From Oscillospiraceae bacterium (lineage in GTDB: Bacteria > Bacillota > Clostridia > Oscillospirales > Ruminococcaceae), in assembly GCA_017468865.1 (NCBI GenBank), contig JAFUHM010000054.1:3252-67251 (forward strand): a DNA stretch of 64,000 nucleotides, read 5' to 3'. Position 1 is the first letter of the stretch. Each line of letters opens with the position of its first letter. This document shows positions 4,633-39,427 of this stretch, piece after piece. The translations under genes were made by a program, and so were the position numbers. The notes under the pieces are model-generated. The model did not search any database, had not been told where the DNA came from, and saw nothing but the letters and a program-made list of their open reading frames with translations.

Positions 4633-4646
4633 TAGGGGCGAGGATA

Positions 4647-5864: not shown

Positions 5865-5885
5865 GCTTCACGAACATGGAAACAG

Positions 5886-5917
5886 CTGCCCCGGACATTG
5901 TCAGGGGCAGTTTATTT
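5886..5917 (+). terminator. Rho-independent terminator
   Basis: CTGCCCC/GGGGCAG stem followed by TTTATTT. Confidence 0.7.
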
Positions 5918-5970
5918 CTGCTGCGGTGCGGGGCAAATAAGTACAGATTGTGAACTTTTTGGGATACCTC

Positions 5971-5999
5971 TTGTATTTTCAGCGGAGGTGTGTTATAAT
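5971..5999 (+). promoter_or_regulatory. SigA promoter of obgE
   Basis: TTGTAT-17bp-TATAAT with extended TGn. Confidence 0.7.
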
Positions 6000-6046
6000 C
6001 AAAGAGTGTTTGTTTATTGAAGAAATTTCCGTGATCGGAGTATCAT

Positions 6047-7324
6047 ATGTTTGTAGATAAAGCCATAATCAATATTAAGGCGGGTGACGGGGGAGACGGC
6101 GCTGTTTCCTTCCACCGTGAAAAATATGTGGCGGCAGGCGGACCCGACGGGGGTGACGGCGGCAAGGTCGGCGACATCGTATTCGTTGCCGATGACTCAC
6201 TGTCAACGCTTATCGACTTCCGCTACAAGCGCAAGTATCATGCGGAGAAGGGGCAGAGCGGCGGCGGAGGCAACCGCACCGGAAAGAACGCTCCCGACCT
6301 TGTGATAAAGGTGCCCAGAGGCACGGTGATAAGAGAGCGTGAGTCGGGGCGCATCATCGCCGATATTTCGGGTGATGAGCCTGTGGTCGCTGCAAAGGGC
6401 GGCAAGGGCGGCAAGGGCAATGCAAGATTTGCCACCCCAACCAGACAGATACCCCGCTTTTCAAAGCCGGGCTTTCTCGGAGAGGAATTTGAGGTCACTC
6501 TCGAACTCAAGTTCCTGGCGGATGTGGGACTTGTAGGCTTCCCGAATGTGGGAAAGTCCACCCTTATCTCCGTGGTGTCAGCCGCAAAGCCCAAGATCGC
6601 AAACTATCACTTTACCACCCTTTCGCCTGTGCTGGGCGTGGTCCGTGTGGATGAGGGCAACTCATTCGTAATGGCGGATATCCCCGGACTTATCGAGGGG
6701 GCAGCAGACGGTGTGGGTCTGGGGCATGAATTCCTGCGGCACGTTGACCGATGCAGGCTCATAGTCCATGTTGTGGACGTATCGGGCAGCGAGGGGCGTG
6801 ATCCGAAGGAGGACTTCGAGATAATAAACAGGGAGCTGGCGAACTTCTCCGATGAGCTTGCGGCACGGCCTCAGATCGTGTGCGCAAACAAGTCGGATAT
6901 GGCGACCCCTGAGCAGATAAAGGACTTCACCGACTATGTGAAGGCGAAGGGCTGCGATGTGTATACCATATCCGCCGCCACTACCACGGGCACAAGGGAG
7001 CTTGTGGACAGGATCGCCGAGGAACTGGCGAAGCTCCCGCCCATAAAGAGATATGAGCCTGAGCCTCCCGCAGTCGTTCTTGATGAGCACGCAGGCGACG
7101 GGCAGAAGTTCGAGATCACCAGAGGGGACGATGCGGTATTCTATGTGGAGGCTCCCTGGCTCGAACATATCATACGCACGGTGGACATGGATGACTATAT
7201 GTCGCTCCAGTACTTCCAGAAGGTGCTGCGCACATCGGGCATCATCGCAAAGCTGGAGGAAATGGGCATAGATGAGGGCGACACGGTCAACATCTTCGGA
7301 TTTGAGTTCGACTTCGTATTCTGA
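6047..7324 (+). CDS. obgE: GTPase ObgE/CgtA
   Basis: MFVDKAII..AGDGGDG Obg fold, GFPNVGKST, DIPGLIEGA, NKSD, C-terminal OCT domain. Confidence 0.97.
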   Translation: MFVDKAIINIKAGDGGDGAVSFHREKYVAAGGPDGGDGGKVGDIVFVADDSLSTLIDFRYKRKYHAEKGQSGGGGNRTGKNAPDLVIKVPRGTVIRERESGRIIADISGDEPVVAAKGGKGGKGNARFATPTRQIPRFSKPGFLGEEFEVTLELKFLADVGLVGFPNVGKSTLISVVSAAKPKIANYHFTTLSPVLGVVRVDEGNSFVMADIPGLIEGAADGVGLGHEFLRHVDRCRLIVHVVDVSGSEGRDPKEDFEIINRELANFSDELAARPQIVCANKSDMATPEQIKDFTDYVKAKGCDVYTISAATTTGTRELVDRIAEELAKLPPIKRYEPEPPAVVLDEHAGDGQKFEITRGDDAVFYVEAPWLEHIIRTVDMDDYMSLQYFQKVLRTSGIIAKLEEMGIDEGDTVNIFGFEFDFVF

Positions 7325-24451: not shown

Positions 24452-24482
24452 ACTTGACAAATTTTGGTCAAGTTGTTATAAT
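24452..24482 (+). promoter_or_regulatory. Consensus SigA promoter with an inverted repeat overlapping the -35
   Basis: TTGACA(24454)-17bp-TATAAT(24477), TGn; ACTTGAC-N8-GTCAAGT at 24452-24473. Confidence 0.8.
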
Positions 24483-24679
24483 GTTTATACGGGCAATTGT
24501 TTTTTCATAATCCTTACAGAAAATTTCTGCCGTTTTTTTTGCCGTATCATCATCCTGCTGACACAAAGCGCACCGATGCGGCATCGAGGGGAACGGAAAT
24601 ATAGATCGAGAGACACGAAAAAATATGTATGTCTGAATTTAGGATACCATGTATCCCGTGAAGAAAGGTGGTCTGTCTT

Positions 24680-27574
24680 TTGTCAGGAAACAGAGGTCTG
24701 AAACGGCTGCTGTCCGGTCTGATGGCTCTGGTGCTGTGCTCGGGGGCGTTCGCCATACCTCCCGCAACATCGGCGGAAAACTATGTCATGCCGACTATCA
24801 GCTACACCAAGCAAAAGACCTATGCAGAGTACTTTGAAGATGTCAGGAATGCCCAGAAGCCTGCGGGCGATGTGCTGATGACATATAAGGAGTGCGGCGA
24901 CGAAGCCCAGGTCGAAGTGAAGAACTTCGAGTCGAGAGATGCAGTCGTATGGAGCAATGAAGACGGATATGTGACCTATACCGTCGATGTGCCTCAGACA
25001 GGCGCATACAACATCGAGGCTTGCTACTATCCCATCGTGGGCGGCAATACCACGACGGAGATATCCCTGCTCATAGACGGCGAGAGCCCCTATGACACGG
25101 CATCAAGAATAGAGCTGCCCCGCAGATGGCATTCAAAGACGGCCATCGAGAAGAACAAGAGGGGCAACGAGACACGTCCTCCGCAGGTGGAAGAACCGGA
25201 CTGGGTGACTTCACCGTTCAAGGATGCGGACGGCCTGTTCAACGAGCCGCTGTACTTTATCCTTGAAGAGGGCACTCATGAGATTACCCTCAAGTCCGAA
25301 AGGGCATCTCTTGCGTTCGAGTACATCAAGCTCTATCAGTATGAGAATGCGGAGGCTTATGTACAGCCTTCCGAGGCGGAACTTGCGAAGAATGCCGGCA
25401 CGCCCATGATAAGGCTGCAGGGCGAGAACTTCACGTCTACAAGTTCGCAGGAGCTGTTCCCCACCTACGACAGAGGAAACTACCTCACGGAGGATCACGA
25501 GGGCAATTCCACCGACCCTGTAAAGGAGCGGTACAACACCGTAGGCTCGGATACATGGGATACGTCCGGTCAGACTATCACATGGACTATGGATGTCCCT
25601 GCGGACGGCTGGTATAAGGTGGGCATAAAGGCTCGTCAGGATGATATGCGAGGCTTTTACTCGAACCGCCGCCTCTATGTTGACGGCAAGGTTCCCTCCG
25701 CACCCTTCGAGCAGATAAAGTTCTACTATTCCAACGACTGGGAGATGACGTCTCCCGTGGATGAAACGGGCGCACCTGCCTATATGTATCTTACCAAGGG
25801 GACACATGAGCTCTCCCTCGAGGCAGTCCCCGGTGAGATAGGCGAGTCCATGATGAGGCTTGATGCGGTAGTGGAAGAGGCAAACGACCTCTACCTCAAG
25901 ATCCTCATGATAACAGGACCCAACCCCGATAAGTACACGGACTACTATGTACACAAGGAGATCCCCGAACTCGTAGATTCCTTCACAAGGCTGTCCGATG
26001 CGCTGAGGAGCGAGCAGGAGAGGATAGAGTCCCTGTCCAACTCCACCGGTTCCGAGGCTACCACCCTTGCGAGACTTGCCGATGTCCTCGACAAGTGCGT
26101 AAAGAAGCCCAACAAGATCCCCAACTACATCTCAAACGGTTCCATCAAGGATAACATCGCATCCGTATCTTCATGGATGAAGCAGTACCGTATGCAGCCC
26201 CTTGAGATCGATTTTATTGAGATAGCACCTTCGGATGCACAGTTTTCTCCCACCAAGGAGAGCTTCTTCAAGGCGATAGGCTATGCGGCAAGAGGCTTTG
26301 TAGGCTCATTCTTTGAAGACTATACCGTGCTTTCGGACTCCACGGAGAACTCCGTCATCGTATGGTGCGGGCTCGGCCGTGACCAGACCACCGTTGTAAA
26401 GCAGCTCACCGAATCGGAGTTCATCCCCGAATCGGGCGTGGATGTTTCCATCAACCTGGTACAGGGTACCATCATGGAGGCTGTGCTTGCGGGCAAGGGC
26501 CCTGACGTGGCTATGTTCGTGGGCGGTGAATTCCCCGTGAACCTTGCCATCAGAGGACTTGTAAAGCCCCTTGACGATATGGAGGGCTTTGATGAGGTGG
26601 CAGACAGGTTCCAGGAGAAGGCTCTTGTGCATTATCAGTACAACGGCTCTACCTACGGCATACCTGTTTCACGAAACTTCCCCATGATGTTCTACCGCAC
26701 GGATACCCTTGCGGAACTGGGCATCACCGCTCCTCCCGAGACATGGGACGACCTTATAGATATGCTTCCCGCACTTCAGCGAAAGTATATGCAGCCCGGC
26801 CTTATCCTTCCCGTCAATGTGGGAGGTACTTCCGTCGCTCCCGCTACGGAGGCAGGCCATACCTTTGCCATGCTCATGCTCCAGTCGGGTACGAACTACT
26901 ATAATGATGAGCAGACGGCTACCACCTTTGACTCGGTGGAGGCGGTCAATGCCTTCGACAAGTGGACGAAGTTCTACACCACATACCAGTTCGACCAGGC
27001 ATATGATGCGTTCACACGTTTCAGAACGGGTGAGGCACCCATCGTTATTCAGAACTACAACTCCTTCTACAATCAGCTCAACGTGGCTGCTCCCGAGATA
27101 AGCGGAGAGTGGGACTTCTGCCCCGTACCCGGCACACGCCGTCCGGACGGCACCGTATCCCACGCTGCCAACTCCAGCGGCTCCGGCATCATCGTGCTCA
27201 AGGACTGCGACAATGTTCAGGGTGCATGGGAGTTCATCAAGTGGTTCACCTCCGATGACGTCATGGTGGAATACGGTCAGAACGTAGAGGGCGTTATGGG
27301 ACCTCTGGGACGCTTTGACTCAGCAAATGTCAACGCTCTCCAGAAGCTCAACTGGTCCAAGTCTGACCTTGAGAAGATAAACGCACAGCTCAATGAGCTG
27401 GATGAGATCCCCATAACACCGTCGTCCTACGTTGTTACGAGATCTCTGATGAATGCGTTCCGCTCCGTAGTAAACGAGAATGAGAATGCAAGAGAACAGC
27501 TTCGCTGGTATAACAGAGACATCAACGCCGAGATCGCAAGAAAGCGCAAGAACTTGGGTCTTGACGAAGATTAA
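24680..27574 (+). CDS. Very large extracellular solute-binding protein with N-terminal CBM6/35-like beta-sandwich repeats
   Basis: Signal peptide without lipobox Cys; repeats YTVDVPQTGAYNI and WTMDVPADGWYKV; C-terminal SBP (GKGPDV, MFYRTD, WDDL, AWEFIKWFTS); likely TTG start 24680. Confidence 0.88.
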   Translation: MSGNRGLKRLLSGLMALVLCSGAFAIPPATSAENYVMPTISYTKQKTYAEYFEDVRNAQKPAGDVLMTYKECGDEAQVEVKNFESRDAVVWSNEDGYVTYTVDVPQTGAYNIEACYYPIVGGNTTTEISLLIDGESPYDTASRIELPRRWHSKTAIEKNKRGNETRPPQVEEPDWVTSPFKDADGLFNEPLYFILEEGTHEITLKSERASLAFEYIKLYQYENAEAYVQPSEAELAKNAGTPMIRLQGENFTSTSSQELFPTYDRGNYLTEDHEGNSTDPVKERYNTVGSDTWDTSGQTITWTMDVPADGWYKVGIKARQDDMRGFYSNRRLYVDGKVPSAPFEQIKFYYSNDWEMTSPVDETGAPAYMYLTKGTHELSLEAVPGEIGESMMRLDAVVEEANDLYLKILMITGPNPDKYTDYYVHKEIPELVDSFTRLSDALRSEQERIESLSNSTGSEATTLARLADVLDKCVKKPNKIPNYISNGSIKDNIASVSSWMKQYRMQPLEIDFIEIAPSDAQFSPTKESFFKAIGYAARGFVGSFFEDYTVLSDSTENSVIVWCGLGRDQTTVVKQLTESEFIPESGVDVSINLVQGTIMEAVLAGKGPDVAMFVGGEFPVNLAIRGLVKPLDDMEGFDEVADRFQEKALVHYQYNGSTYGIPVSRNFPMMFYRTDTLAELGITAPPETWDDLIDMLPALQRKYMQPGLILPVNVGGTSVAPATEAGHTFAMLMLQSGTNYYNDEQTATTFDSVEAVNAFDKWTKFYTTYQFDQAYDAFTRFRTGEAPIVIQNYNSFYNQLNVAAPEISGEWDFCPVPGTRRPDGTVSHAANSSGSGIIVLKDCDNVQGAWEFIKWFTSDDVMVEYGQNVEGVMGPLGRFDSANVNALQKLNWSKSDLEKINAQLNELDEIPITPSSYVVTRSLMNAFRSVVNENENAREQLRWYNRDINAEIARKRKNLGLDED

Positions 27575-27588
27575 GGGAGGGTAAGATT

Positions 27589-28551
27589 TTGGCAGAACAG
27601 ACCGCTAAAAAGGAAATTCTGCTCCCTTCGGAGAGGAAAATGAGCCGTAAGGAAAAAAGAGACTATACTCTCCACGAGATGAAGAGGAACTATATGTGCT
27701 ACGTCATGTTGGCACCGTTTATGATCTTCTTCCTCATCTTCACGGTCATTCCCGTTATAATGTCGCTCCCCATGGGCTTTACGAGCTTTGATATGGCGAG
27801 CTTCCCGAAATGGGTAGGATTCCAGAATTTCTACACTTTGTTCCTGGACGACGACGTATTCATGAAGGCGATCAGGACGACACTCATATTCGCAATATTC
27901 ACAGGACCTCTGAGCTATGTCATGAGCTTCATGCTGGCGTGGCTGATAAACGAACTCCACCCCACGCTCAAGACGCTCTTCACGCTGGTCTTCTATGCAC
28001 CGTCCATGGCGGGCAACATCTACTTCGTGTGGCAGCTGATATTCTCCGGCGACCAGTACGGCTACCTCAACGCATTCCTTATGGAGCTGGGCTTCACCTA
28101 TGCGGCAAAGCAGTGGCTCACCGACGGTACTCTCGTGCTCGGATGCGTTATCGTTGTACAGCTGTGGGTGTCCATGGGCGCAGGCTTCCTTGCGATGCGT
28201 GCAGGCTTCCAGGGCATAGACAAGTCCATGTATGAAGCAGGCGCTATCGAGGGTATCAAGAACCGCTGGCAGGAACTGCTCTACATCACCATCCCTTCAA
28301 TGGGACCTTCGCTGATGTTTGCCGCAGTTATGCAGATCGTATCAGCATTCACCTGCGATATCGTGGGACGTACTCTCGCAGGATTCCCTTCAACGGACTA
28401 CAAAGTGCATACCATCATGACCCACGCCTTCGACTACGGCTGGGTAAGATATGAGATGGGCTATTCGGCTGCGATATGTTTCGTGCTCTTCGTGGTGATG
28501 CTCGTGTGCAACAACCTTGTCGGCAAGGTGCTCGGCAAGTACATCGACTAA
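27589..28551 (+). CDS. Carbohydrate ABC permease
   Basis: WVGFQNF; EAGAIEG EAA-loop; YEMGYSAA. Confidence 0.93.
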   Translation: MAEQTAKKEILLPSERKMSRKEKRDYTLHEMKRNYMCYVMLAPFMIFFLIFTVIPVIMSLPMGFTSFDMASFPKWVGFQNFYTLFLDDDVFMKAIRTTLIFAIFTGPLSYVMSFMLAWLINELHPTLKTLFTLVFYAPSMAGNIYFVWQLIFSGDQYGYLNAFLMELGFTYAAKQWLTDGTLVLGCVIVVQLWVSMGAGFLAMRAGFQGIDKSMYEAGAIEGIKNRWQELLYITIPSMGPSLMFAAVMQIVSAFTCDIVGRTLAGFPSTDYKVHTIMTHAFDYGWVRYEMGYSAAICFVLFVVMLVCNNLVGKVLGKYID

Positions 28552-28560
28552 GGGGTGAGC

Positions 28561-29544
28561 TTGATTTTGGCAAAGAAAAGAAAAGATTTGAAGCCTTCAG
28601 AGCTCGCCGCTATGCAGGCTGCGGAGAATGCCGCAGCACTGGAGGCACTGAGAAAGCGAAGAGAAAAAGAGCATAAGAAGATGCTCAAATCAAAGGGCTC
28701 CAACAAGAGAGTCGGCAAGTCGTGGACAAATGACATAGGCATTTTTCTGCTGCTGGCATTCTTCGGGCTCTTCATGATATTCCCTATTTACCTTGCAGTG
28801 GTAAACTCCATCAAGCCCGTGCAGGAAGTGTTCCTCATGCCGCCTAAGCTCTATGCGATGGATCCTACCACGGACAACTTCCGGGATCTGTTCAAGATCG
28901 CCAACAACTCATGGGTGCCTTTCTCCAGAAACATATTCAACTCCGTATTTGTTACGGTAGTGGCTACGGTGCTCCATGTGCTGTTCGCATCCACAGCGGC
29001 GTTCGTACTTTCAAAGTGCCGCTTCCCCGGGAACGCATTCCTTAATCAGGTCGTTGTCATCGCCCTCCTGTTCAACTCCACTGTCCTGTACATCATGCAG
29101 TACATGGTAATGGCTACTCTGGGCATGATAAACACCTATTCCGCACTCATACTTCCCATTATTTCCACATCTATGGGTCTTTACCTCATGCGACAGTCCA
29201 TGACCACCATACCCGATGCCATGATAGAGGCTGCCAAGGTGGATGGTGCAGGACTTATGAGGATATGCTGGGGCATAGTGATGCCCAACTGTAAGCCCGC
29301 TCTCATGACGATAATCATCTTTGAGTTCCAGACAGCGTGGAACGCCAATGGCGGCGGTCTTGTTTACGATGAAGCACTCAAGACCATTCCCGTTGTGGTC
29401 CAGCAGATAGCTGCGGCAGGTATTGCACGTCAGGGTGCGATAGCTGCATCTGCGGTAGTGCTGATGGTACCTCCTCTGCTGGTATTCGTGCTTGCTCAGA
29501 GGAACGTAATGGAAACGATGGCACACGCAGGCATGAAGGATTAA
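28561..29544 (+). CDS. Carbohydrate ABC permease
   Basis: IPDAMIEAAKVDGA EAA-loop; basic N-terminal extension. Confidence 0.93.
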   Translation: MILAKKRKDLKPSELAAMQAAENAAALEALRKRREKEHKKMLKSKGSNKRVGKSWTNDIGIFLLLAFFGLFMIFPIYLAVVNSIKPVQEVFLMPPKLYAMDPTTDNFRDLFKIANNSWVPFSRNIFNSVFVTVVATVLHVLFASTAAFVLSKCRFPGNAFLNQVVVIALLFNSTVLYIMQYMVMATLGMINTYSALILPIISTSMGLYLMRQSMTTIPDAMIEAAKVDGAGLMRICWGIVMPNCKPALMTIIIFEFQTAWNANGGGLVYDEALKTIPVVVQQIAAAGIARQGAIAASAVVLMVPPLLVFVLAQRNVMETMAHAGMKD

Positions 29545-29575
29545 CGTGCAATATCTGAATAAAAAGGGTGATCAT

Positions 29576-31138
29576 ATGTCAGACATGAAAACATCCTTGA
29601 AAAGGATGATTGCTGCGGCAGGTGCGGTAGTCATGATGACGAGCATCGCAGGCAGCGTGTCCGCTATGGAAAGCTATGACCCTTACAGCTATGACCGATG
29701 GGGAGATGCAGTCTCCTCTCAGGTGGGATACAGCGCAGAACGGTTTGTGGACGGCAAGCTCATTGACGGCCTTGCCGCCAAGATAGAGGCTATGGAAGGC
29801 TATGACTATGACAAGGAGGAGTGGAAGCAGCTCCTCCAGCTCAAAGAGCCGCAGGACATCTTTATCGACCACAATCAGCTGATGTATATAGTTGACAAGG
29901 GAAATAACAGAGTTATCGTAACGGACCTTGAATTCAATATGGTGAATTATCTCGATAAGTTCACCTATAACGGCGAAACGCTCACACTGAGCTCTCCCCA
30001 GGGCGTGTTCGTCGATCCCGAGACCGATATGGTGTATATCGCAGATACGGAGAACAGCCGTGTCATCAAGTGCGACTATGAAGGCAATGTGGACAGGCTT
30101 TTCGAGAAGCCCGCTTCCGAGATCTACACTCAGGAACTTACCTTCAAGCCTGAAAAGGTAGTCGTGGACAAGGCGGGAAATGTCTACATCGTTGTAGGCT
30201 CCGTCACCAAGGGTGCGGTAATGTACGATGCGAACGGCGAGTTCCTCGGATTCTTCGGTGCGAACCGAGTAGAGGCTACCGCAGAGATCGTGGTCAACGC
30301 ATTCTGGAACACAATAGCTACCGAAGCACAGCGTGAACATATGACAAAGTCCACCGCTATCGGCTTCGACAACTTTGACATCGACGACGAGGGCTTTATC
30401 TTCACCGTTACCGAGTCCCAGGACGTGGAGACGGATACGGTCAAGAAGGTAAACCCCGAGGGCACCAACATCCTCCACACCATAATAGATGAGGATACGG
30501 TGTTCGGCGACCATAACCCCGCATACTGGTCTATCTACTCCAAGCGTTCATCCATCGTGGATATCGACATCGGAGAGAACGGCTACATCAATCTCCTGGA
30601 CTTCGTACACGGACGTGTGTTCCAGTACGATGAGAAGACAAACCTCATGTTCGTCTTCGGCGGCACAGGCAACCAGCTCGGCACATTCCTTTCGGCAGTC
30701 GCACTTGAATCCTATGACAACAGGATGTATGTCCTGGATTCCCGCAAGAACGGCATCACCATATTCAAGAGGACGCAGTTCGGCGAGATAGTTACGGAGG
30801 CTACCAACAAGTACAACGACGGCCTGTACGATGAGTCGGAACAGCCCTGGCGTGATGTCATAAAGTATGACGGCAACTACCGCAGGGCATACATAGGCAT
30901 CGGAAATGCTCTCCTCAACCGCAACGAGTACAAGGAGGCAATGAAGTATTTCAAGGTGGCTATCTCAAGAAAGCGCTATAACAGAGCATTTGAGGGCTAC
31001 CGTGATCAGCTCCTCCAGAAGTATCTCACACCCTGCGTTGTCATCATCATCGTGCTGGCAGTCGTGATAAAGGTGCTTCAGATACTGGAGAAGAAGGCAA
31101 TAATCACATTCCCGTGGACAAGAAGGAGAGGTGGATAA
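29576..31138 (+). CDS. Secreted NHL-repeat beta-propeller with C-terminal TPR-like region and TM anchor
   Basis: PQDIFID..MYIVDKGNNRV, PQGVFVD..VYIADTENSRV; AYIGIGNALL..EYKEAMKYF; C-terminal hydrophobic helix. Confidence 0.85.
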   Translation: MSDMKTSLKRMIAAAGAVVMMTSIAGSVSAMESYDPYSYDRWGDAVSSQVGYSAERFVDGKLIDGLAAKIEAMEGYDYDKEEWKQLLQLKEPQDIFIDHNQLMYIVDKGNNRVIVTDLEFNMVNYLDKFTYNGETLTLSSPQGVFVDPETDMVYIADTENSRVIKCDYEGNVDRLFEKPASEIYTQELTFKPEKVVVDKAGNVYIVVGSVTKGAVMYDANGEFLGFFGANRVEATAEIVVNAFWNTIATEAQREHMTKSTAIGFDNFDIDDEGFIFTVTESQDVETDTVKKVNPEGTNILHTIIDEDTVFGDHNPAYWSIYSKRSSIVDIDIGENGYINLLDFVHGRVFQYDEKTNLMFVFGGTGNQLGTFLSAVALESYDNRMYVLDSRKNGITIFKRTQFGEIVTEATNKYNDGLYDESEQPWRDVIKYDGNYRRAYIGIGNALLNRNEYKEAMKYFKVAISRKRYNRAFEGYRDQLLQKYLTPCVVIIIVLAVVIKVLQILEKKAIITFPWTRRRGG

Positions 31139-31141
31139 GCT

Positions 31142-31771
31142 ATGTTGGATCTTACACAAGGTCAGTTCGTCAGACACGTAGTTATGCACCCCTTCGAGGG
31201 ATTTGAGGATCTGCGCTGGAAAAAGTCGGGCGACATGAGGATAGCGACCGCTATCGTGTGTCTCCTGTTCTTCCAGCAGCTGGCTTACAGCAGACTTTAC
31301 GGCTTCCAGTACTATTCAAGCTACGATAAGGTGTTCAACATCATACCCTTCTTCTTCCGCTCATTCGGCATATTCCTGCTGTACGTCGTGTGCAACTGGG
31401 CAATGTGTACGCTGTTTGACGGCGAGGGAGCACTGAAGAATATCTACATAGTCACGGCATATTCGCTCATCCCGTACATCGCAGGATCGCTTATCGGCAC
31501 GCTGCTGTCACACGTCCTGATAAAGGATGAATACATATTCATCCAGACGGTGGAATGGATAGGGCTCGGCTGGACAGTGGTGCTGTTCATATCGGCGATG
31601 AAAGCGGTGCATCAGTTCTCGTTCTTCAAGACGATACTGCTGATAGCGCTTACGCTGGTCGCCATGGTGCTGTGCATATTCCTGCTGGTGCTGCTGCTGA
31701 CACTCTTCCAGCAGGTGCTGATATTCATATTTACGATTTATACGGAGCTGTCTTATAGGCTTAGAGTATAA
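31142..31771 (+). CDS. YIP1-family membrane protein
   Basis: HPFEGFEDLR, NWAMCTLFDGEG, YSLIP, multiple TM helices. Confidence 0.82.
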   Translation: MLDLTQGQFVRHVVMHPFEGFEDLRWKKSGDMRIATAIVCLLFFQQLAYSRLYGFQYYSSYDKVFNIIPFFFRSFGIFLLYVVCNWAMCTLFDGEGALKNIYIVTAYSLIPYIAGSLIGTLLSHVLIKDEYIFIQTVEWIGLGWTVVLFISAMKAVHQFSFFKTILLIALTLVAMVLCIFLLVLLLTLFQQVLIFIFTIYTELSYRLRV

Positions 31772-31790
31772 ACAGAAAAGTGGTGATATA

Positions 31791-34088
31791 ATGGATCTTA
31801 AGTTTAAAAAGACAGCTGCATTCCTGCTTTCTCTGCTGCTTATCGCCCCCGTGACAGCAAGCGTATATTCCGAAGACGCTCCCGCTGAAGAAGAGGTCGT
31901 GGAAGAGGCGGAGGAAAAGGAAGATAAGGAAGAGAAAGAGGAAGACGAGGAAAAGCCCCGTACCGAGGAGGAGGCCTTCGCCCTGATGGAGAAGGTCGCT
32001 GAGAACGCCAAGCTCGAGCTGTGGGCGAATGAGAAGGAAGGCACCCTTTGCCTGAAGGATCTCAAGACCAATAAGCTCTGGTGGTCAAACCCCGTTGACC
32101 TTGAGACTTCCAACGCCAAGAAATCCCAGAAACAGGATCTGGCGTCCGGCATGACCCTTATCTATGCCGAGCCCCTGAACCGTGCCACGACTACCCAGAA
32201 CAACAAGGGCAAGGGCAAGTTCAAGATGAAGAAGATCACCAACGGAGTCCATTACGAGTATTCCTTCTCGGGACCGGGCATCACCGTTCCCGTGGATGTG
32301 ACTCTTGAGGACGATCACCTCAAACTCCATGTGACCACTTCGGAGATCGTGGAGGAGCATCCCTCGAATGTGCAGGGTCAGCTCGTTTCCAATCTTGCAT
32401 TCTTTACTACCTTCGGTGCGGCAGGACTTGATGAGAAGGGCTACTTCGTAGTTCCCGACGGCAGCGGTGCGGTGATAGAGTTCAACAACGGAAAGACCGA
32501 CCTGAGGACTTACTCCGGCAAGGTCTACGGCAGGGACATTACCGCTGTCAAGCAGACCAAGACGGCTGTCACACGAAATGTATCCTTCCCTATGTACGGC
32601 ATAGTCAAAGGCGACTCCGCACTTATGGTAGTCGCTGACAAGGGAGATACAGCTGCTTCGATAAACTCCTATGTTTCAAATCAGAACAAGACCGACTACA
32701 ACTCGACCTATTTTGACTTCGAGCTGAGGACATCGGATGAATACCTGATGGGCGGCGAATCCAACCCCCTCAAGGTATTTGAGAAGAGAGGCATACTCGT
32801 TCCCGAGATCGAGGTAAGATACTATCCCGTTTCCAACGACAACGGCGGCGACATCGACTATACCGACATCGCTTCTAAGTACAGGGAATACCTTATCAAT
32901 GACAAGGGCGTTGCCGATCAGACCATAGCAGCAACATCACCCATGTACGTTGACCTCTACGGCGGCACCCTGGAGAAGAAATCCATCCTGGGCATACCCG
33001 TCACCGTAAAGGCGCCTGCCACCACCTTCAAGACCGCAAAGTACATACTTGAGACCATGAAGGGCGAGCAGATAAACGACATGGTGGTCACCTACAATAA
33101 GTTCTCCAATGAGGATCTGGGCGAGAAGATAACCGATTCCTGGTCGCCCGCAGGCAAACTCGGCGGCAATTCGGACTGGAAGAAGCTGGAGTCCTATGCC
33201 GATGCCAACGGCATACCCCTCTATCCTTCCGTTGACAACACTCAGTTCAAGACGGGCAACGGCTACTGGGATATGACAAACACCTCCATCCGAGTATCCA
33301 ACGCATACGCAAAGCTTCCTGTATACGATCTGGCGCACGGCACAGAGAACAAGTACTATACGCCTCTGTCTCTGTTCTCGCCCGCATCCTACAAGAAGGC
33401 TTACAGCAAGCTGATAAACAGCTACACCAAGAAGGGACATACGAATTTCGCATTCGGTGCGCTCTCCAACACCATCTACGGCGACTACGGCAGACAGGCG
33501 ACATCAAGAGAGCTTGCCAAGGGCATCGTGTCCGACATCTATGCCGACGCAAAGTCCAAGGGCAGCGTGCTTGCCGACAATCCCGCATCCTATGTCATTC
33601 CCTATGTGGACTACATAACGAATGTGCCCGTGGACTCAAGCAAGTTCGACCTGTTTGACCAGGATATACCCTTCTATCAGATGGTGCTTCACGGCGTGAT
33701 CCCCTACTCATCCGTAGCGGTGAACTCCGAGCCCGATATCACACGCATCGTGCTTGACTCCGTAGCTTCAGGCAGCAACCTCAGCTTTGACTTTACGGGC
33801 ATCGAGGCATCCGAACTGAAGGATACCAAGCTTGATTCGTACTTCTATTCCTACTATGCAAACTGGATCGGTGAGGCAGCGGGGCTGTACGAACTGGCAT
33901 CGGCTGTCATCGCTCCCAATGCGGATTCCTACATCATAGACTACAACATCTATGATGACGGCAACAGGATAGAGACGATCTACGCCAACGGGAACAAGAC
34001 CGAGGTCGATTACGAAAAGGGCACCATAACAGCGAACAACACCGTATACGATGTTATGGAATATGTGGGAAAGGGGGCGAGTGAGTGA
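31791..34088 (+). CDS. DUF5696-like secreted protein
   Basis: Signal peptide, acidic stretch, LWWSNP, FVVPDGSGAVI, KVYGRD, IPFYQMVLHG; typical position in this cluster type. Confidence 0.75.
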   Translation: MDLKFKKTAAFLLSLLLIAPVTASVYSEDAPAEEEVVEEAEEKEDKEEKEEDEEKPRTEEEAFALMEKVAENAKLELWANEKEGTLCLKDLKTNKLWWSNPVDLETSNAKKSQKQDLASGMTLIYAEPLNRATTTQNNKGKGKFKMKKITNGVHYEYSFSGPGITVPVDVTLEDDHLKLHVTTSEIVEEHPSNVQGQLVSNLAFFTTFGAAGLDEKGYFVVPDGSGAVIEFNNGKTDLRTYSGKVYGRDITAVKQTKTAVTRNVSFPMYGIVKGDSALMVVADKGDTAASINSYVSNQNKTDYNSTYFDFELRTSDEYLMGGESNPLKVFEKRGILVPEIEVRYYPVSNDNGGDIDYTDIASKYREYLINDKGVADQTIAATSPMYVDLYGGTLEKKSILGIPVTVKAPATTFKTAKYILETMKGEQINDMVVTYNKFSNEDLGEKITDSWSPAGKLGGNSDWKKLESYADANGIPLYPSVDNTQFKTGNGYWDMTNTSIRVSNAYAKLPVYDLAHGTENKYYTPLSLFSPASYKKAYSKLINSYTKKGHTNFAFGALSNTIYGDYGRQATSRELAKGIVSDIYADAKSKGSVLADNPASYVIPYVDYITNVPVDSSKFDLFDQDIPFYQMVLHGVIPYSSVAVNSEPDITRIVLDSVASGSNLSFDFTGIEASELKDTKLDSYFYSYYANWIGEAAGLYELASAVIAPNADSYIIDYNIYDDGNRIETIYANGNKTEVDYEKGTITANNTVYDVMEYVGKGASE

Positions 34089-34984
34089 AGAAACTGAATA
34101 TGTCATATGAGAAAAAGAAAGGGCTGTACGGCTACGGCTTCATAGGCATCTGGTTCATAGGTGCGCTGATGTTCTTCATCATCCCCGTTATCCAGTCCTT
34201 CTGGTACTCGTTCCATGACGTGACTCCCGACGTAGGGCAGCTGATAAAGAAATGGGTAGGCATAGAGAACTTCCGCCGTGCCTTTACGGTAGACCCGGAC
34301 TTCCGTGTAAATCTTACGTCGGTGCTCGGTGACACCGCATGGCAGACACCTATCATCCTGATATTCTCCCTGTTCGTGGCGATAATCATCAACCAGGAAT
34401 TCAAGGGCAGGACGTTCGCAAGAGCGGTGTTCTTCCTCCCCGTTATCATCGCAACGGGTCCTGTGTATGCGATCATCACAGGTAACCTTTCCACTTCCGG
34501 TACTGCTGATGCAGAGCAGTTCTCCTCCATGTTCTCGGCCAACATGGTAGATGAGCTCCTGGAATTTGTCGGCATCTACGGATTCAACGACAAGCTGACG
34601 GAACTTTTGTCCACCATGACATCGGATATCCTGAACCTGGTATGGAAGTGCGGTATCCAGATAATCGTCTTCCTGGCGGCATTGCAGGGCATCCCCGCAT
34701 CCGCAAAGGAAGCAGCCAATATCGAGGGTGCGACTGCATGGGAATTCTTCTGGAAGATAACCCTTCCCTATGTATCCCCCATGATACTGGTAAACCTTGT
34801 GTACACCATCATCGACACATTCGTTGCTACCGACAACAAGGTCATGACACAGGTGCTGCAGATACAGGACGACTGGAAGTACGGACTGTCCGCAGCGATG
34901 GCATGGAGCTACTTCGTGATAGTCCTTGTGGTCGTGGGCATAATCTTCGCAATAATGAACAAGATCGTTTACTACGATGACTAA
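34085..34984 (+). CDS. Carbohydrate ABC permease
   Basis: EAANIEGATAWEFFWKITLP; YGLSAAMAW. Confidence 0.93.
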   Translation: MKKLNMSYEKKKGLYGYGFIGIWFIGALMFFIIPVIQSFWYSFHDVTPDVGQLIKKWVGIENFRRAFTVDPDFRVNLTSVLGDTAWQTPIILIFSLFVAIIINQEFKGRTFARAVFFLPVIIATGPVYAIITGNLSTSGTADAEQFSSMFSANMVDELLEFVGIYGFNDKLTELLSTMTSDILNLVWKCGIQIIVFLAALQGIPASAKEAANIEGATAWEFFWKITLPYVSPMILVNLVYTIIDTFVATDNKVMTQVLQIQDDWKYGLSAAMAWSYFVIVLVVVGIIFAIMNKIVYYDD

Positions 34985-34999
34985 GTCAGGAGAAAGACT

Positions 35000-36103
35000 A
35001 TGGCAACTGAAACAATGACAGCACAGGCTGTTGATCAAAAGGGTCTTAAGTCTTTCCTGGACAAGGTCAGACCTGAGAAGAAACCCAAAGAATCCAAGCG
35101 CAGCCGCAAGGAAGAAAAGGAGCGTTTCAAGAAGAGACTTTCCACCCTTACCCCGGCTGAGCAGAAATACCTCAAGCGCAAGCAGGCGATCGAAGCTGTA
35201 TGGCCCATAGCAAGAGGACTTCTCGTGTTCGGACTGTGCTTCGTCATCATATATCCTTTGCTGTATATGGTGACTACCGCATTCAGACCCCGTTCCGAGA
35301 TGAATGACCCTACAATAATCTGGCTTTCAAAATCCTTCACCCTCTCCAACGTCAAGGACGTTATAAAGGCGATGAGTTTCTGGAAGACACTGGGCAATAC
35401 CCTCTTTATCAACATCGGCTGCTCGATAATACAGGTCATCACCTGCGCACTCACGGGCTACGGCTTCGGACGATTCAAGTTCAAGGGCAAGAACATCCTC
35501 TTTGCGGTGGTCATCATGATGATCCTCATGCCTCCGCAGATCATACTGATCCCTCAGTATATGTTCTTCCGCTACTTTAATCCTCTGGGCATATGGCACC
35601 TTATCACTCACAATTACATCAACCTCATCAATAACCCTCTGACGATGTATATGCCCGCACTTACGGCCAACGGCATCAAGGCAGGTCTGTTCATATTCCT
35701 GTTCAGACAGGCATTCAGAGGCCTCCCCAAGGAACTTGAGGATGCCGCTTACCTTGACGGCTGCTCGCCTTTCAAGACATTTGTAAGTGTCATGATACCC
35801 AATGCAGGCTCTACATTCCTTACAGTTTTCCTGCTGTCTGTGGTATGGTACTGGAACGACTACTATGTTTCCACATCCTTCTTCACAGATAACTCCACCA
35901 TCGCACTTCAGCTCAAGAATCTGGACGCATCCCTTACCCGTATAATCTTCAACAACGGTAACGTAAAGGTCAACGCCCGTGAGCTTATCGTATGGCTCGA
36001 AGCAGGATGCCTTATATCCATCACGCCTATCCTCATTATGTATATCTTCCTTCAGAAGTACTTCACAGAGGGTATCGCAAGATCGGGTCTTACAGGCATG
36101 TAA
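35000..36103 (+). CDS. Carbohydrate ABC permease
   Basis: PKELEDAAYLDG; WYWNDYY; QKYFTEGIARSG. Confidence 0.93.
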   Translation: MATETMTAQAVDQKGLKSFLDKVRPEKKPKESKRSRKEEKERFKKRLSTLTPAEQKYLKRKQAIEAVWPIARGLLVFGLCFVIIYPLLYMVTTAFRPRSEMNDPTIIWLSKSFTLSNVKDVIKAMSFWKTLGNTLFINIGCSIIQVITCALTGYGFGRFKFKGKNILFAVVIMMILMPPQIILIPQYMFFRYFNPLGIWHLITHNYINLINNPLTMYMPALTANGIKAGLFIFLFRQAFRGLPKELEDAAYLDGCSPFKTFVSVMIPNAGSTFLTVFLLSVVWYWNDYYVSTSFFTDNSTIALQLKNLDASLTRIIFNNGNVKVNARELIVWLEAGCLISITPILIMYIFLQKYFTEGIARSGLTGM

Positions 36104-36121
36104 ACAGAATAATATCATGTA

Positions 36122-36215
36122 CGGCGGAACGGCTTGGCCGTTTCGCCGCATTGATATAACCGCAGGCTATGCCCTCATTCCAACGGACAGCAGGCTCATG
36201 CCGTCTGTTGGAATG
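36122..36215. other. Two intergenic stem-loops without U-tracts
   Basis: 12-bp stem 36122-36148; long imperfect stem CATTCCAAC..GTTGGAATG 36176-36215. Confidence 0.7.
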
Positions 36216-36332
36216 CAGACATACGCTGACAAATGAGATATCCCCGAGGCAGACAACGCATTTCCATGATCTTAAAAGCGCATAGTGAGCATCCTGTCGG
36301 GTGCCTTTATCAATGTTTACACGGTGAATGAT

Positions 36333-38612
36333 ATGAATGACAGACTTTATTATACTGCCCCCGCAAAGGAGTGGCACAATGCTCTCCCTCTGGGCAACGG
36401 ACGCATAGGCGCAATGATATGGGGCATCCCCCTCGACGAGATCGTTTCCCTCAATGAGGACAGCATCTGGTCGGGGAAATACCGTGACCGCAACAATCCT
36501 AAAGCACTTGCGAATCTGGAACGCATACGGGAACTGATCCGCACGGGTCAGACCGATGAGGCGAATGCCCTGTGCGAGACTGCCTTCTACGGCTGTGCGG
36601 AACAGCAGCGGCATTATATGCCGCTGGGGGATATGCACATACACACCGAGCTTGAAGGTGAGCCCGAAGGATACAGCCACACACTCTCCCTCTCATCGGG
36701 AGTGGATGAGGTCAGCTTCACCGCAGGGGACGTCACTGTGCGCCGCACATCCTTTGTCTCATACCCCGACGGCGTGATGGTCATGCGCCTTCAGGCAGAC
36801 AGCAGGACAGGCGGCAGGGTAAGGTATTCTGTCACCATCGACGGCAGGGATGACAACTACGACAGCATCAGGGGAGTAGGCCGTGAGACGCTGCTTTTCA
36901 CCGTAACAGACGGCATCCCCTATACCTGTGCCGTCACCGCCGTGGGCGGACAGTCAGCCGCCGTGGGAGTTTCGGGCAATATCCTTGAAGCTGAGACTGA
37001 CTTTGGCGAGGATGTGATCCTCATCATAGGCGTGCAGACGGGATACCGTGCAATGGATCACTCGGAGGCTGTCCTGGATGACACGGGGCGTGCCCTTCGC
37101 ATGGGGTACGCAAGGCTTTATGAACGCCACTTGCAGGATCATGCCGCACTGTATGACAGATGCAGGCTGTCCCTTGATGCGTCCGACAGCGGCATACCCA
37201 CCAATGAGAGGCTGGAACGGCTGCGCAGAGGAGAAAGCGACAGGGGACTTGCGGAGCTGTACTTCAACTACTCACGCTACCTCATGATCGCAGGCTCCCG
37301 TCCCGGCACCCTTCCCCTCAATCTTCAGGGCATATGGAACCATGATATGTGGCCTGCGTGGGGCTGCAAATATACCATAAACATCAACACCGAGATGAAC
37401 TACTGGGGAGCAGAGATGCAGAACCTCTCCGAATGTCATCTTCCTCTGCTGTGCCACATAGAGCGTATGCGTGAGCACGGCCGTGTCACTGCCCGTGAGA
37501 TGTACGGATGCAGGGGCATGGTATGTCATCACAATACGGACATATGGGGCGATACTGCTCCGCAGGACAGATGGCTCCCTGCCACGGCATGGGTCATGGG
37601 GCTTGCGTGGCTGTGCCTGCATATATATGAGCATTATCTCTTCACACGGGACAAGGATTTCCTGCGTGAGAAGATAGACACTATGGCGGAAGCAGCCGAG
37701 TTCTTCCTTGACTTCCTTATCGAGAATGAGGAGGGGTATCTCGTCACGTCTCCCTCCCTCTCACCCGAGAATACATATATCACTCCCGAGGGGCGCAAGG
37801 GCGTTCTCTGCGAAGGCTCCACCATGGATATCCAGATACTCCGCTCCCTCTTCACGGCGGTGCTCGAGAGCTTCGATGCCGTAGGCGGAGTGGATGAGCA
37901 GACCATTTCGCAGATAAGACAGGCAAGAGAAAAGCTGCCGCCGCTGAGGGTAGGCAAGTACGGTCAGATATGCGAATGGACATACGATTATGACGAGGCT
38001 GAACCGGGGCACCGCCATATCTCACAGCTGTTCGGACTCTATCCCGCAGCATCGATAACGCCCGATACACCGCAGCTCTATGAGGCGGCAAGGGCTACCA
38101 TCGAGCGCAGGCTTTCCCACGGGGGAGGTCATACCGGCTGGTCAAGGGCGTGGATCATCAATATGTGGGCAAGGCTCCATGACGGGGAGAAGGTAGGGGA
38201 GAACATAAAGGCGCTCCTTGCCAATTCCACCGCAGACAGTATGCTTGATATGCACCCGCCTTTCCAGATAGACGGCAATTTCGGCGGCGGTGCAGGCATA
38301 TGTGAGGCACTTATCCAGTCCGTGAACGGTGTGGTGGAGCTGCTCCCTGCACTTGTACCCGACTGGAAGAAGGGGAGCCTTGCGGGAGTGAGGGCAAGAG
38401 GGGGCTTCGAGCTGTCCTTTGAATGGGAGGACGGCAGGGTCATCCATGCCGAGGTGAAGTCGCTTGCAGGCGAGACCATGAAGCTGAGGTCTGAGACCGC
38501 CATCGCCGTAAACGGCAAGGTCTGCGAATCTAAGAACGGCATATGCGAATTTCAAACACAGGCAAACAGGGTATATGATATACATTTTGGCCATGAGGCC
38601 GAAGACTGCTGA
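36333..38612 (+). CDS. GH95 alpha-L-fucosidase/alpha-L-galactosidase
   Basis: ALPLGNGRIGAM, NEDSIWSG, NLQGIWN, YTININTEMNYW, HRHISQL, GWSRAW, PPFQIDGNFG; no signal peptide seen. Confidence 0.93.
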   Translation: MNDRLYYTAPAKEWHNALPLGNGRIGAMIWGIPLDEIVSLNEDSIWSGKYRDRNNPKALANLERIRELIRTGQTDEANALCETAFYGCAEQQRHYMPLGDMHIHTELEGEPEGYSHTLSLSSGVDEVSFTAGDVTVRRTSFVSYPDGVMVMRLQADSRTGGRVRYSVTIDGRDDNYDSIRGVGRETLLFTVTDGIPYTCAVTAVGGQSAAVGVSGNILEAETDFGEDVILIIGVQTGYRAMDHSEAVLDDTGRALRMGYARLYERHLQDHAALYDRCRLSLDASDSGIPTNERLERLRRGESDRGLAELYFNYSRYLMIAGSRPGTLPLNLQGIWNHDMWPAWGCKYTININTEMNYWGAEMQNLSECHLPLLCHIERMREHGRVTAREMYGCRGMVCHHNTDIWGDTAPQDRWLPATAWVMGLAWLCLHIYEHYLFTRDKDFLREKIDTMAEAAEFFLDFLIENEEGYLVTSPSLSPENTYITPEGRKGVLCEGSTMDIQILRSLFTAVLESFDAVGGVDEQTISQIRQAREKLPPLRVGKYGQICEWTYDYDEAEPGHRHISQLFGLYPAASITPDTPQLYEAARATIERRLSHGGGHTGWSRAWIINMWARLHDGEKVGENIKALLANSTADSMLDMHPPFQIDGNFGGGAGICEALIQSVNGVVELLPALVPDWKKGSLAGVRARGGFELSFEWEDGRVIHAEVKSLAGETMKLRSETAIAVNGKVCESKNGICEFQTQANRVYDIHFGHEAEDC

Positions 38613-38647: not shown

Positions 38648-39427
38648 ATGAGTGAATTCTACAAGGGCAACGGGGAATACTTTATGGGGAACGACCCGTC
38701 AAATGTGACAAACGGGTATTCTTCCGCTGAGGAGCGTTCGGGATACGGGGATACCATATATGCCGAGCCCTCTGATATCAATGTGGTGGTGGACGAGCCT
38801 GTTTTCTGCATACACTGCGGTGCGGAGAACAGAAAGGGGACGACCGTGTGTCAGTTCTGCGGACTGCGCCTTACCTCGGACACAGGGGATAACGGATACT
38901 ACGACCCCAAGTCCGTCACAAGGTACGCAGGCGCAGGGACATATCAGACCAGATCTCCCTATGACGTGCCGCCCGCAAACGATCAGAACTATTACGGCGG
39001 ACACTACAACGGTCAGGGATATAATAACTACACCACACGTCAGGCAGGGGCTCCCGGTCAGAACGGCGCACATGGGATGTTCGGCGCACCCGGGGGATAC
39101 GGCGGCTCACAGCAGTACAGCGATCCCCGTACCTACAATAATTCTCAGCCGTACAACAATCAGTACGGCCGCACCAATATCAACATCAATTTCAATCAGA
39201 ACAACAATCAGAATATGTATGTGCCTGCGGGTGCCAAGAACAAGTGGGTCACATTCTTCCTCACCCTTTTCCTGGGCTGGATCGGTGTACACAGATTTTA
39301 TGAGGGAAAGATAGGATCGGGGCTTCTGTGGATGTTCACGCTGGGACTGGGAGGCTTCGGCTATTTTGTCGATCTTATCATCAACTTTGTCCGCCTGTTC
39401 TCCAGGGGCGATTACTATAATCCTTGA
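38648..39427 (+). CDS. Zinc-ribbon + low-complexity + TM2-domain protein
   Basis: FCIHCG..CQFCG; G/Y/N/Q-rich middle; KNKWVTFFLTLFLGWIGVHRFYEGKIGSG. Confidence 0.85.
   Translation: MSEFYKGNGEYFMGNDPSNVTNGYSSAEERSGYGDTIYAEPSDINVVVDEPVFCIHCGAENRKGTTVCQFCGLRLTSDTGDNGYYDPKSVTRYAGAGTYQTRSPYDVPPANDQNYYGGHYNGQGYNNYTTRQAGAPGQNGAHGMFGAPGGYGGSQQYSDPRTYNNSQPYNNQYGRTNININFNQNNNQNMYVPAGAKNKWVTFFLTLFLGWIGVHRFYEGKIGSGLLWMFTLGLGGFGYFVDLIINFVRLFSRGDYYNP

Follow-up and report, generated by a model that had tools for sequence, protein, structure and literature searches.

Gram-positive fibre degraders take up complex plant oligosaccharides through ATP-binding cassette (ABC) importers, which are usually pictured as simple assemblies of one binding protein, a pair of permeases and an ATPase. 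Here we examine a locus that adds three conserved proteins and a second channel to this three-part design. The locus lies within a stretch of 64,000 nucleotides, hereafter the window, from an Oscillospiraceae bacterium (GenBank assembly GCA_017468865.1, contig JAFUHM010000054.1, positions 3,252 to 67,251 of the forward strand). On balance it is probably one copy of a conserved eight-gene cassette that encodes a composite CUT1-type importer for complex plant oligosaccharides, equipped with accessory subunits.

The cassette is most like the CUT1 importers (TC 3.A.1.1) represented by AraNPQ-MsmX of Bacillus subtilis, with which it shares a binding protein and a MalF/MalG-type permease pair with EAA loops, and would share the reliance on an ATPase encoded elsewhere; it is established that MsmX serves more than one importer of B. 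subtilis (PMC5730181, PMC7658222). The likeness extends to the presence of cytoplasmic glycosidases nearby, and a paralogue of the cassette in the same genome heads an arabinan/arabinose operon. To our knowledge, the only precedent for a bacterial Yip1-family protein working with an ABC transporter is the YknWXYZ system. In Bacillus, the partners of the Yip1-family protein YknW are an ABC exporter of the MacB type and a membrane-fusion protein, and the system protects against a peptide toxin (PMC4887032). Our literature searches found no paper on DUF5696, no paper describing the cassette and nothing relevant that combines Yip1, NHL repeat, ABC transporter and solute-binding protein.

Results

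A conserved eight-gene cassette

In the open reading frame (ORF) list of the window, nine co-oriented ORFs occupy the + strand from 24668 or 24680, depending on the start codon chosen for the first, to 38612. They encode, in order, a giant solute-binding protein (SBP), permeases P1 and P2, an NHL beta-propeller protein with TPR repeats, a Yip1-family membrane protein, a DUF5696 protein, permeases P3 and P4, and a glycosidase of glycoside hydrolase (GH) family 95. The eight genes from SBP to P4 are separated by gaps of 14, 3, 1, 3, 19, -4 and 15 bp, the negative value reflecting a 4 nt overlap of the DUF5696 stop with the P3 start codon, and a spacer of 181 bp divides P4 from GH95. The initial annotation of the window had described nine co-oriented genes at 24680-38612, eight of them tightly packed and then GH95, with no ATPase among them. 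All of these ORFs are found there, the spacing is as tight as described, and Pfam and NCBIfam matches of the locus proteins and the flanks reveal no ATPase gene inside the locus. Gaps of -4 to 19 bp are consistent with translational coupling of the eight genes behind a single strong promoter.

All 24 genomes examined from the genus carry DUF5696, as do 9 of the 16 that represent other families of its order. Among regions surrounding DUF5696 matches, the order SBP-P1-P2-NHL-(Yip1)-DUF5696-P3-P4 is present in 20 of 20, with sequence identities of 22-50% outside the genus. The same order was observed, as far as each contig reached, in 79 of 79 further loci of named genomes, including those of Ruminococcus callidus ATCC 27760 and R. 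flavefaciens MA2007, and an orthologous locus, with GH95, is present in the cultured Huintestinicola butyrica Sanger_06. Carriers comprise Huintestinicola, R. callidus, R. flavefaciens, other Oscillospirales families and Paenibacillus, and the number of cassette copies reaches 4-6 per genome. The arrangement is far beyond chance.

Co-occurrence of the component genes is similarly strict. A Yip1 profile matches the same 34 of 41 related genomes as DUF5696 and none of the 7 that lack DUF5696, and the two genes are always adjacent. A profile of the SBP N-terminal region matches 33 of the 34 DUF5696 genomes on the same contigs, the exception being a genome whose cassette begins at a contig end. 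Independent assortment of accessory genes and permeases, the outcome by which the initial annotation would have been refuted, is therefore not observed.

Two separable modules

Sampling across the phylum shows that DUF5696 passes the cut-off in 23 of 301 genomes, with Paenibacillus odorifer, P. borealis and other Paenibacillaceae among the distant carriers. Eighteen loci from distant families reveal how the cassette can be divided. Ten have the full order, two are permuted to [NHL/Yip1-DUF5696-P3-P4][SBP-P1-P2], and six consist of NHL/Yip1-DUF5696-P3-P4 only. Five of these six half-cassettes adjoin ordinary binding proteins of 430-460 amino acids (aa) and/or carbohydrate-active enzymes (CAZymes), as judged by Pfam, and in 9 of the 18 loci the gene immediately after P4 encodes a second binding protein. 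The cassette is composed of two separable modules, one being the giant SBP with P1-P2 and the other NHL/Yip1-DUF5696-P3-P4, often with a second SBP. Given the half-cassettes and the second SBP after P4, NHL/Yip1 and DUF5696 therefore belong with P3-P4, and the giant SBP with P1-P2 is a second, usually attached importer.

These comparisons both extend and correct what had been proposed from the window. The assertion that the architecture recurs in other glycan degraders is borne out by the three locus sets (20/20, 79/79 and 10/18). The description of two permease pairs with one SBP is accurate for this locus but not for the general design, as one SBP has been lost in this lineage: a second is present in 9 of the 18 distant loci and in the paralogue in the same genome. 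The conserved unit of eight genes is built of two modules, in which NHL/Yip1 and DUF5696 travel with P3-P4 and not with the giant SBP and P1-P2. GH95, which had been counted in a nine-gene unit, is confined in the 20- and 79-locus sets to a Huintestinicola-like clade; it is a lineage-specific neighbour outside the conserved cassette of eight genes.

One departure from the usual gene structure was noted in locus L119 (G172:C1, ~3861-6720), where the P2 gene of a distant copy is split. Its two pieces are separated by ~1.6 kb and enclose a 167-aa ORF, which may reflect an insertion that interrupts the cassette.

The giant binding protein and the permease pairs

The SBP gene (24680..27574, + strand) encodes a protein of 968 aa when counted from the GTG at 24668, as are all of its residue numbers given here. 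Matches to Pfam SBP_bac_8 and SBP_bac_1 are confined to residues 590-870 (E 5e-30 and 7e-27). An AlphaFold (AF2) model with a mean predicted local distance difference test score (pLDDT) of 86.7 and a predicted template-modelling score (pTM) of 0.82 has an N-terminal signal/anchor helix (10-25), two beta-sandwiches (~72-223 and 248-387), a helical bundle (391-508) and a binding domain (513-962). By Foldseek, the binding domain resembles binders of sophoro-, manno- and cycloisomalto-oligosaccharides, with template-modelling (TM) scores of 0.74-0.81.

A Foldseek search with the whole SBP returned only binding-protein matches among the matches listed, and the N-terminal domains were identified through a profile built from a sub-alignment. 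This two-sandwich profile matches the carbohydrate-binding module CBM35 of cycloisomaltooligosaccharide glucanotransferase (5x7g) with an E value of 2.7e-9 and other CBM35/CBM6 modules weakly. Pfam CBM_35 is found in 33 of 49 SBP homologues (best E 4.6e-8). Because the window SBP itself scores 19.6 bits, under the Pfam cut-off of 28, we term its sandwiches CBM35-like only.

The four permeases, assigned by Pfam (P2 and P4), NCBIfam and hydrophobic segments, match BPD_transp_1 or UgpA/UgpE-like models. The first channel consists of the MalF/UgpA-type P1 (27589..28551, +) and the MalG/UgpE-type P2 (28555..29544, +), and the second of the MalF/UgpA-type P3 (34085..34984, +) and the MalG/UgpE-type P4 (35000..36103, +). 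P1 is 26% identical to P3, and P2 is ~20% identical to P4. EAA-type loops are retained in each of the four permeases, so both channels should be functional. Thus, of the components that define CUT1 importers, an extracellular binding protein of the SBP_bac_1/8 type is present as the giant SBP, and a MalF/MalG-type pair with an EAA coupling loop is present twice, as P1/P2 and P3/P4.

P2 and P4 carry basic N-terminal extensions, the former predicted to be cytoplasmic and the latter long. Lys, Arg and Glu abound in the first 55-70 residues of both proteins (encoded at 28555-28750 and 35000-35215), a stretch that ordinary CUT1 permeases lack. Such extensions could serve as cytoplasmic docking tails.

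A propeller joined to a Yip1 domain

The NHL/TPR protein (29546..31138, +) begins with a signal peptide, has one membrane helix towards its C-terminus (residues 496-514) and scores 30.6 bits against Pfam NHL (cut-off 20). A sequence search of the PDB matches it to the sensor propeller of PknD (E 3.8e-10) and to the designed Pizza propellers (E 7e-17). The next gene (31142..31771, +) encodes a five-helix membrane protein of the Yip1 family (PF04893, 63.5 bits against a cut-off of 28.6) with five hydrophobic segments. Alignment of its homologues reveals invariant residues at H16, P17, N85, W86, G94, G96, I101, P111, H157, F195, E202 and R206.

Many lineages lack a separate Yip1 gene. Their propeller protein is 680-915 aa long and carries NHL, TPR, a membrane helix and Yip1 in one ORF, with the Yip1 motifs HPF(D/E)GF, NW..T..GEG and HQ(Y/F) in its C-terminal part. 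At least 3,803 protein clusters (90% identity) of fused length match the Yip1 part of one such fusion, and the domain sets listed for clusters of this length contain Yip1, NHL-type propeller and TPR families only. Because these natural fusions exist, the NHL propeller and Yip1 are predicted to form one unit, which agrees with the YIP1-anchored propeller of the initial annotation. The fusions also appear to fix a topology in which the propeller and TPR region lie outside, one helix crosses the membrane and the Yip1 N-terminus lies inside. Combined with the hydrophobic segments, this topology would place H16-P17, N85-W86, G94-E95-G96 and H157 of Yip1 on the cytoplasmic side.

Two genes with unusual Yip1 regions were also encountered. 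A candidate fusion at L107:7280-9355 was rejected as it lacks HPFEGF and has an altered NW motif (GSRAV...DGSG); it looks like a deleted or decaying copy rather than a true fusion. The Yip1 part of a fused gene at G036:C11:60082-60699 contains one in-frame TGA, for which a pseudogene, a sequencing error or recoding are possible explanations.

DUF5696 is related to GH129 and GH101 glycosidases

The protein encoded at 31791..34088 (+) had been called DUF5696-like. The relation is correct but the wording is too cautious, as a match to PF18952 with an E value of 1e-146 makes it a true member of the family, which numbers 1,853 clusters at 50% identity (E below 1e-30). Its AF2 model (pLDDT 87.6, pTM 0.87) is composed of a signal/anchor helix, a disordered acidic linker, an N-terminal beta-sandwich, a TIM barrel and a C-terminal beta-sandwich. 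DUF5696 is predicted to be held at the cell surface because some homologues in the alignment carry lipoprotein-type N-termini.

Foldseek ranks the GH129-like ZgDagB (5opq) highest among structures similar to the DUF5696 model (E 2e-30), followed by GH129 NagBb (5wzn, TM 0.72), then GH101 enzymes (E 1e-17 to 1e-19) and then GH31/GH36, with TM scores of up to 0.73 across the GH129/GH101 matches. A search of the PDB with the single DUF5696 sequence gave nothing meaningful, and the window protein has no match to Pfam Glyco_hydro_129 (PF11308), only PF18952 being reported; PF11308 has no match anywhere in its own genome. A profile of 48 DUF5696 proteins, in contrast to the single sequence, matches ZgGH129 with an E value of 8e-9 and NagBb with 7e-4. 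Because these matches use sequence only, the relation between DUF5696 and GH129 is one of homology, beyond shape.

The catalytic residues of the relatives were mapped onto DUF5696 by two alignments. Mutation of any one of four residues, among them Asp202, inactivates ZgDagB (PMC5698469). A HMMER alignment, whose local confidence is modest, places the DUF5696 motif VYG(R)D on Asp202, with Y246 invariant and D249 Asp in 90% of the proteins. In GH129 and GH101 enzymes, the catalytic nucleophile Asp follows strand 4 of the barrel and the acid/base carboxylate follows strand 6. For the barrel, four PF11308 (GH129-family) proteins encoded in the same phylum were aligned by hhalign with the profile of DUF5696, at a probability of 62%. 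In PF11308 proteins, FIDCD is the likely nucleophile motif, because its distance of 43 residues from GSEGG equals that between Asp435 and Glu478 of NagBb. The nucleophile and acid/base of the GH129 family are thus assigned from motif and spacing and not from structure, and a phmmer comparison of the fetched PF11308 proteins with NagBb gave no match.

In the hhalign alignment, with its probability of 62%, the DUF5696 motif IYDDY falls on IYGDY of PF11308, and its D565 is Asp in 90% of the proteins. The same alignment, at the same probability, places FIDCD on DUF5696 residues 554-558, where column 555 is hydrophobic, and the Glu of GSEGG on D596, which is Asp in 30 and Glu in 2 of the 48 proteins. 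None of the acidic residues in the barrel is invariant among the DUF5696 proteins. The canonical retaining machinery is therefore probably not intact, and DUF5696 would be a glycosidase derivative that binds glycans or, alternatively, an enzyme whose catalytic set has shifted.

Carbohydrate context, ATPases and transcripts

The final ORF of the locus (36285..38612, +) matches the catalytic, N-terminal and C-terminal GH95 domain models of Pfam with 565, 178 and 71 bits, and is predicted to be cytoplasmic, having neither a signal peptide nor any hydrophobic segment. GH95 enzymes act on substrates containing alpha-L-fucose or L-galactose. Because a cytoplasmic GH95 adjoins the cassette, the known activities of this family suggest that the oligosaccharides imported by the window copy bear alpha-L-fucose or L-galactose.

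Other copies of the cassette have different neighbours. These include a GH127-like protein, GH31, GH78, GH106, a GH9-dockerin protein, a GH140 apiosidase, pectate lyase, GH5, GH26 (twice), GH43-CBM6, GH51, an AraC-type regulator and extra binding proteins. Such variety fits an uptake chassis that is reused and joined to differing plant-glycan pathways. Large proteins (650-860 aa) without a Pfam match also adjoin other copies (L017:5935-7893, L017:2803-5067, L091:14280-16478 and L052:1-2583).

A paralogous cassette is present in the same genome outside the window, on contigs C87 (L014) and C81 (L137), with 24-41% identity to the window copy. The end of C87 overlaps the start of reverse-complemented C81 by 47 identical bases, and a sister genome is collinear across the join. 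The paralogous operon runs from P4 through genes for a binding protein of 559 aa, a protein of 528 aa that Pfam does not match, GH43, a MalK-type ATPase (ABC_tran, OB_MalK and TOBE) and GH51 to araA, araB and araD. By its gene content, this paralogue would be the uptake end of an arabinan/arabinose pathway that brings its own ATPase, and it offers the clearest functional context for the cassette. A second MalK-type ATPase gene, without permease neighbours, is located on C10, giving a total of two outside the locus.

Two sheep-gut metatranscriptomes contain short contigs that are 98-100% identical to NHL, Yip1, DUF5696, P3, P4 and the leader upstream of the SBP gene, and one contig spans the junction between NHL and Yip1.

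Promoter, leader and flanking genes

A sigma-70-type promoter (TTGACA-17-TATAAT) with a TG extended -10 element is predicted at 24454..24482 (+), with 12 of 12 matching positions, and is the sole perfect example in the locus. Between this promoter and the SBP gene lies a 5' leader of ~190 nt (24483..24679, +), of which the region 24520-24671 is covered by one contig from the sheep-gut metatranscriptomes. Comparison of the leader with Rfam identified no known RNA family, the only match being at chance level (E 0.42). No regulator gene is present between the V-type ATPase operon upstream of the locus and polA downstream. Since the locus lacks a regulator gene, the leader may hold an undescribed regulatory element.

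Translation of the SBP could begin at a TTG (24680) or a GTG (24668). The TTG is preceded 8 nt upstream by a ribosome-binding site, AAAGGTGG, and is the likelier start, which favours the position chosen in the initial annotation.

The upstream flank consists of the V-type ATPase operon and tadA, and the downstream flank of a gene for a TM2-domain protein and polA. The former of these two downstream genes (38648-39427, +), directly 3' of GH95, encodes a 259-aa protein with a zinc ribbon, a low-complexity stretch rich in Gly, Asn, Gln and Tyr, and a C-terminal TM2 domain.

Discussion

If the cassette encodes a composite importer, as we favour, its two modules would divide the tasks of capture and transport. 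In the first, the two CBM35-like domains of the SBP may hold long glycans near the membrane, and its C-terminal binding domain would pass oligosaccharides to P1-P2. In the second, P3-P4 would act with the NHL-TPR/Yip1 unit and membrane-tethered DUF5696 encoded beside them. DUF5696 and the propeller may bind, and possibly trim, glycan at the mouth of P3-P4, and the Yip1 domain would dock both onto this channel and may signal to the cytoplasmic side. A MalK/MsmX-type ATPase encoded at another site in the genome would power both channels in trans, and in the case of the window copy the imported sugars would be finished in the cytoplasm by GH95.

This model builds on gene content, domain folds, synteny, exclusive co-occurrence, fusions, CAZyme context and the ATPases present in the genome. 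What we infer from these is which proteins touch, what is imported and how DUF5696, the propeller and Yip1 contribute. A link to glycans had been proposed at the outset and is strengthened by the CBM35-like domains of the SBP, the GH129/GH101-like fold of DUF5696 and the CAZyme neighbours. The accompanying proposals of a single physical machine and of an analogy to Sus systems are suggestions that the cassette may assemble and act in this manner.

A bolder version of the model would make NHL-TPR-Yip1 and DUF5696 a new class of accessory subunit for type I ABC importers. Outside the cell, glycan would be captured by the propeller together with a lectin derived from a glycosidase, the Yip1 helices would dock these two on P3-P4 and might join it to P1-P2 in a supercomplex, and the conserved cytoplasmic face of Yip1 would contact the basic permease tails or a shared MsmX-type ATPase, such that capture outside the cell controls which channel is powered. 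Taken as a whole, this scheme is speculative and we regard it as improbable.

Several points weigh against the composite importer. The modules separate or change order, so a single obligatory machine is not required, and in the clade of the window there is no second binding protein to feed P3-P4. The proposed substrate of the window copy derives from one neighbouring gene, GH95. In DUF5696, the position aligned with the nucleophile of GH129 is not conserved, with column 557 being Ser in 22, Asn in 9 and acidic in 7 of the 48 proteins, and any hydrolysis by this protein would need a different catalytic set-up. The RNA contigs are weak evidence of transcription in vivo, as their depth is 1-4 and DNA carry-over is possible.

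Part of this evidence would also fit two ordinary, independent CUT1 importers that share an operon, with NHL/Yip1 and DUF5696 being separate surface proteins, for example an enzyme and an anchor, that act upstream on the polymer. The modules do separate and permute, many copies have a second binding protein such that each channel can be complete alone, and identities of 20-26% between P1 and P3 and between P2 and P4 indicate old, distinct lineages. However, NHL/Yip1 and DUF5696 are never away from the P3-P4 pair in any locus examined, and the DUF5696 stop overlaps the P3 start. Moreover, simple topology reasoning puts the conserved Yip1 residues on the cytoplasmic face, which is hard to explain for a mere anchor, and we judge this arrangement of independent importers to be unlikely. 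A somewhat more credible alternative, though one we still doubt, is that DUF5696 belongs to a new glycosidase family, related to GH129/GH101, and is active at the cell surface, where it would cut polysaccharide into importable pieces; the cassette would then be an enzyme-plus-importer unit. Its three-domain fold is modelled with high confidence, its profile matches ZgGH129 (E 8e-9), D249 (90%) aligns with the Asp202 that ZgDagB needs for activity (PMC5698469), D565 (90%) sits in an IY(G/D)DY motif common to GH129-family proteins, and D596 is acidic in 32 of 48 proteins. Yet the positions aligned with FIDCD, at an alignment probability of 62%, are hydrophobic (555) or mostly Ser/Asn (557, acidic in 7 of 48), no acidic residue in the barrel is invariant, and one enzymatic activity is not expected beside such different sets of CAZymes.

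NHL-TPR-Yip1 could instead be a transmembrane sensor or gate, whose propeller detects glycan and whose Yip1 domain relays the signal to the channel or to a shared ATPase. The absence of an output domain that we could recognise speaks against such a role, as does the presence of AraC-type regulators beside some copies, which implies that gene regulation is handled by other proteins. What it has in its favour are the resemblance of the propeller to the sensor domain of PknD, the lack of a regulator in the locus and the predicted cytoplasmic location of the Yip1 motifs HPFEGF, NW...GEG and HQ, although the Yip1 topology behind the last point is itself a deduction; we assign the sensor a low probability. 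Recycling or remodelling of the cell's own envelope glycans, in place of nutrient uptake, seems very improbable. The window copy does lie between housekeeping genes without a regulator, and the GH129/GH101 relatives of DUF5696 act on GalNAc-type glycans. Nevertheless, plant-glycan CAZymes and arabinose catabolic genes adjoin other copies, the binding domain resembles those of dietary-oligosaccharide binders, and the 4-6 copies per genome occur in differing CAZyme contexts.

We therefore retain the composite importer, whose mechanism is proposed from sequence and models, as a subject of interest for research on glycan uptake by Gram-positive bacteria. The cassette is very common, and its carriers include gut and rumen fibre degraders such as Ruminococcus and Huintestinicola as well as Paenibacillus from soil. 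Once worked out, its function would reveal how monoderms link import to the capture of large glycans at their surface, assign roles to DUF5696 and to a bacterial Yip1 subfamily, and improve the prediction of fibre use from genomes.

Comparison with known systems

Unlike CUT1 importers such as AraNPQ-MsmX, the cassette has two permease pairs per operon, and its SBP of ~970 residues carries two CBM35-like domains and a helical bundle. We know of no described CUT1 system that has the extra conserved trio of NHL/TPR, Yip1 and DUF5696 proteins. With GH129 (NagBb, 5wzn; ZgDagB, 5opq) and GH101, DUF5696 has in common an architecture of beta-sandwich, TIM barrel and beta-sandwich, but it lacks a Glyco_hydro_129 match and a conserved nucleophile position. 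It also differs from these free enzymes in being predicted to be membrane-tethered and in being locked in a transporter operon. The cassette and YknWXYZ both encode a bacterial Yip1-family protein with an ABC transporter. However, the partner of Yip1 in the cassette is a type I importer of sugars, the Yip1 domain comes with an NHL propeller and TPR region outside the cell, and its only transporter neighbours are type I importer permeases, with no MacB-type exporter or membrane-fusion protein beside it.

Of the features of a Gram-positive polysaccharide utilization locus (PUL), a CAZyme (GH95) and a transporter are present, and a co-located regulator was not found between the V-type ATPase operon and polA. 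Unlike the Sus systems of Bacteroidota, the cassette would use ABC channels in cells without an outer membrane, and the locus contains no SusC/SusD pair, so any resemblance is functional only. That resemblance, to Sus-like systems and Gram-positive PULs alike, consists of surface glycan binding, possible surface processing, a dedicated transporter, glycosidases, and several paralogous copies that are accompanied by different CAZymes.

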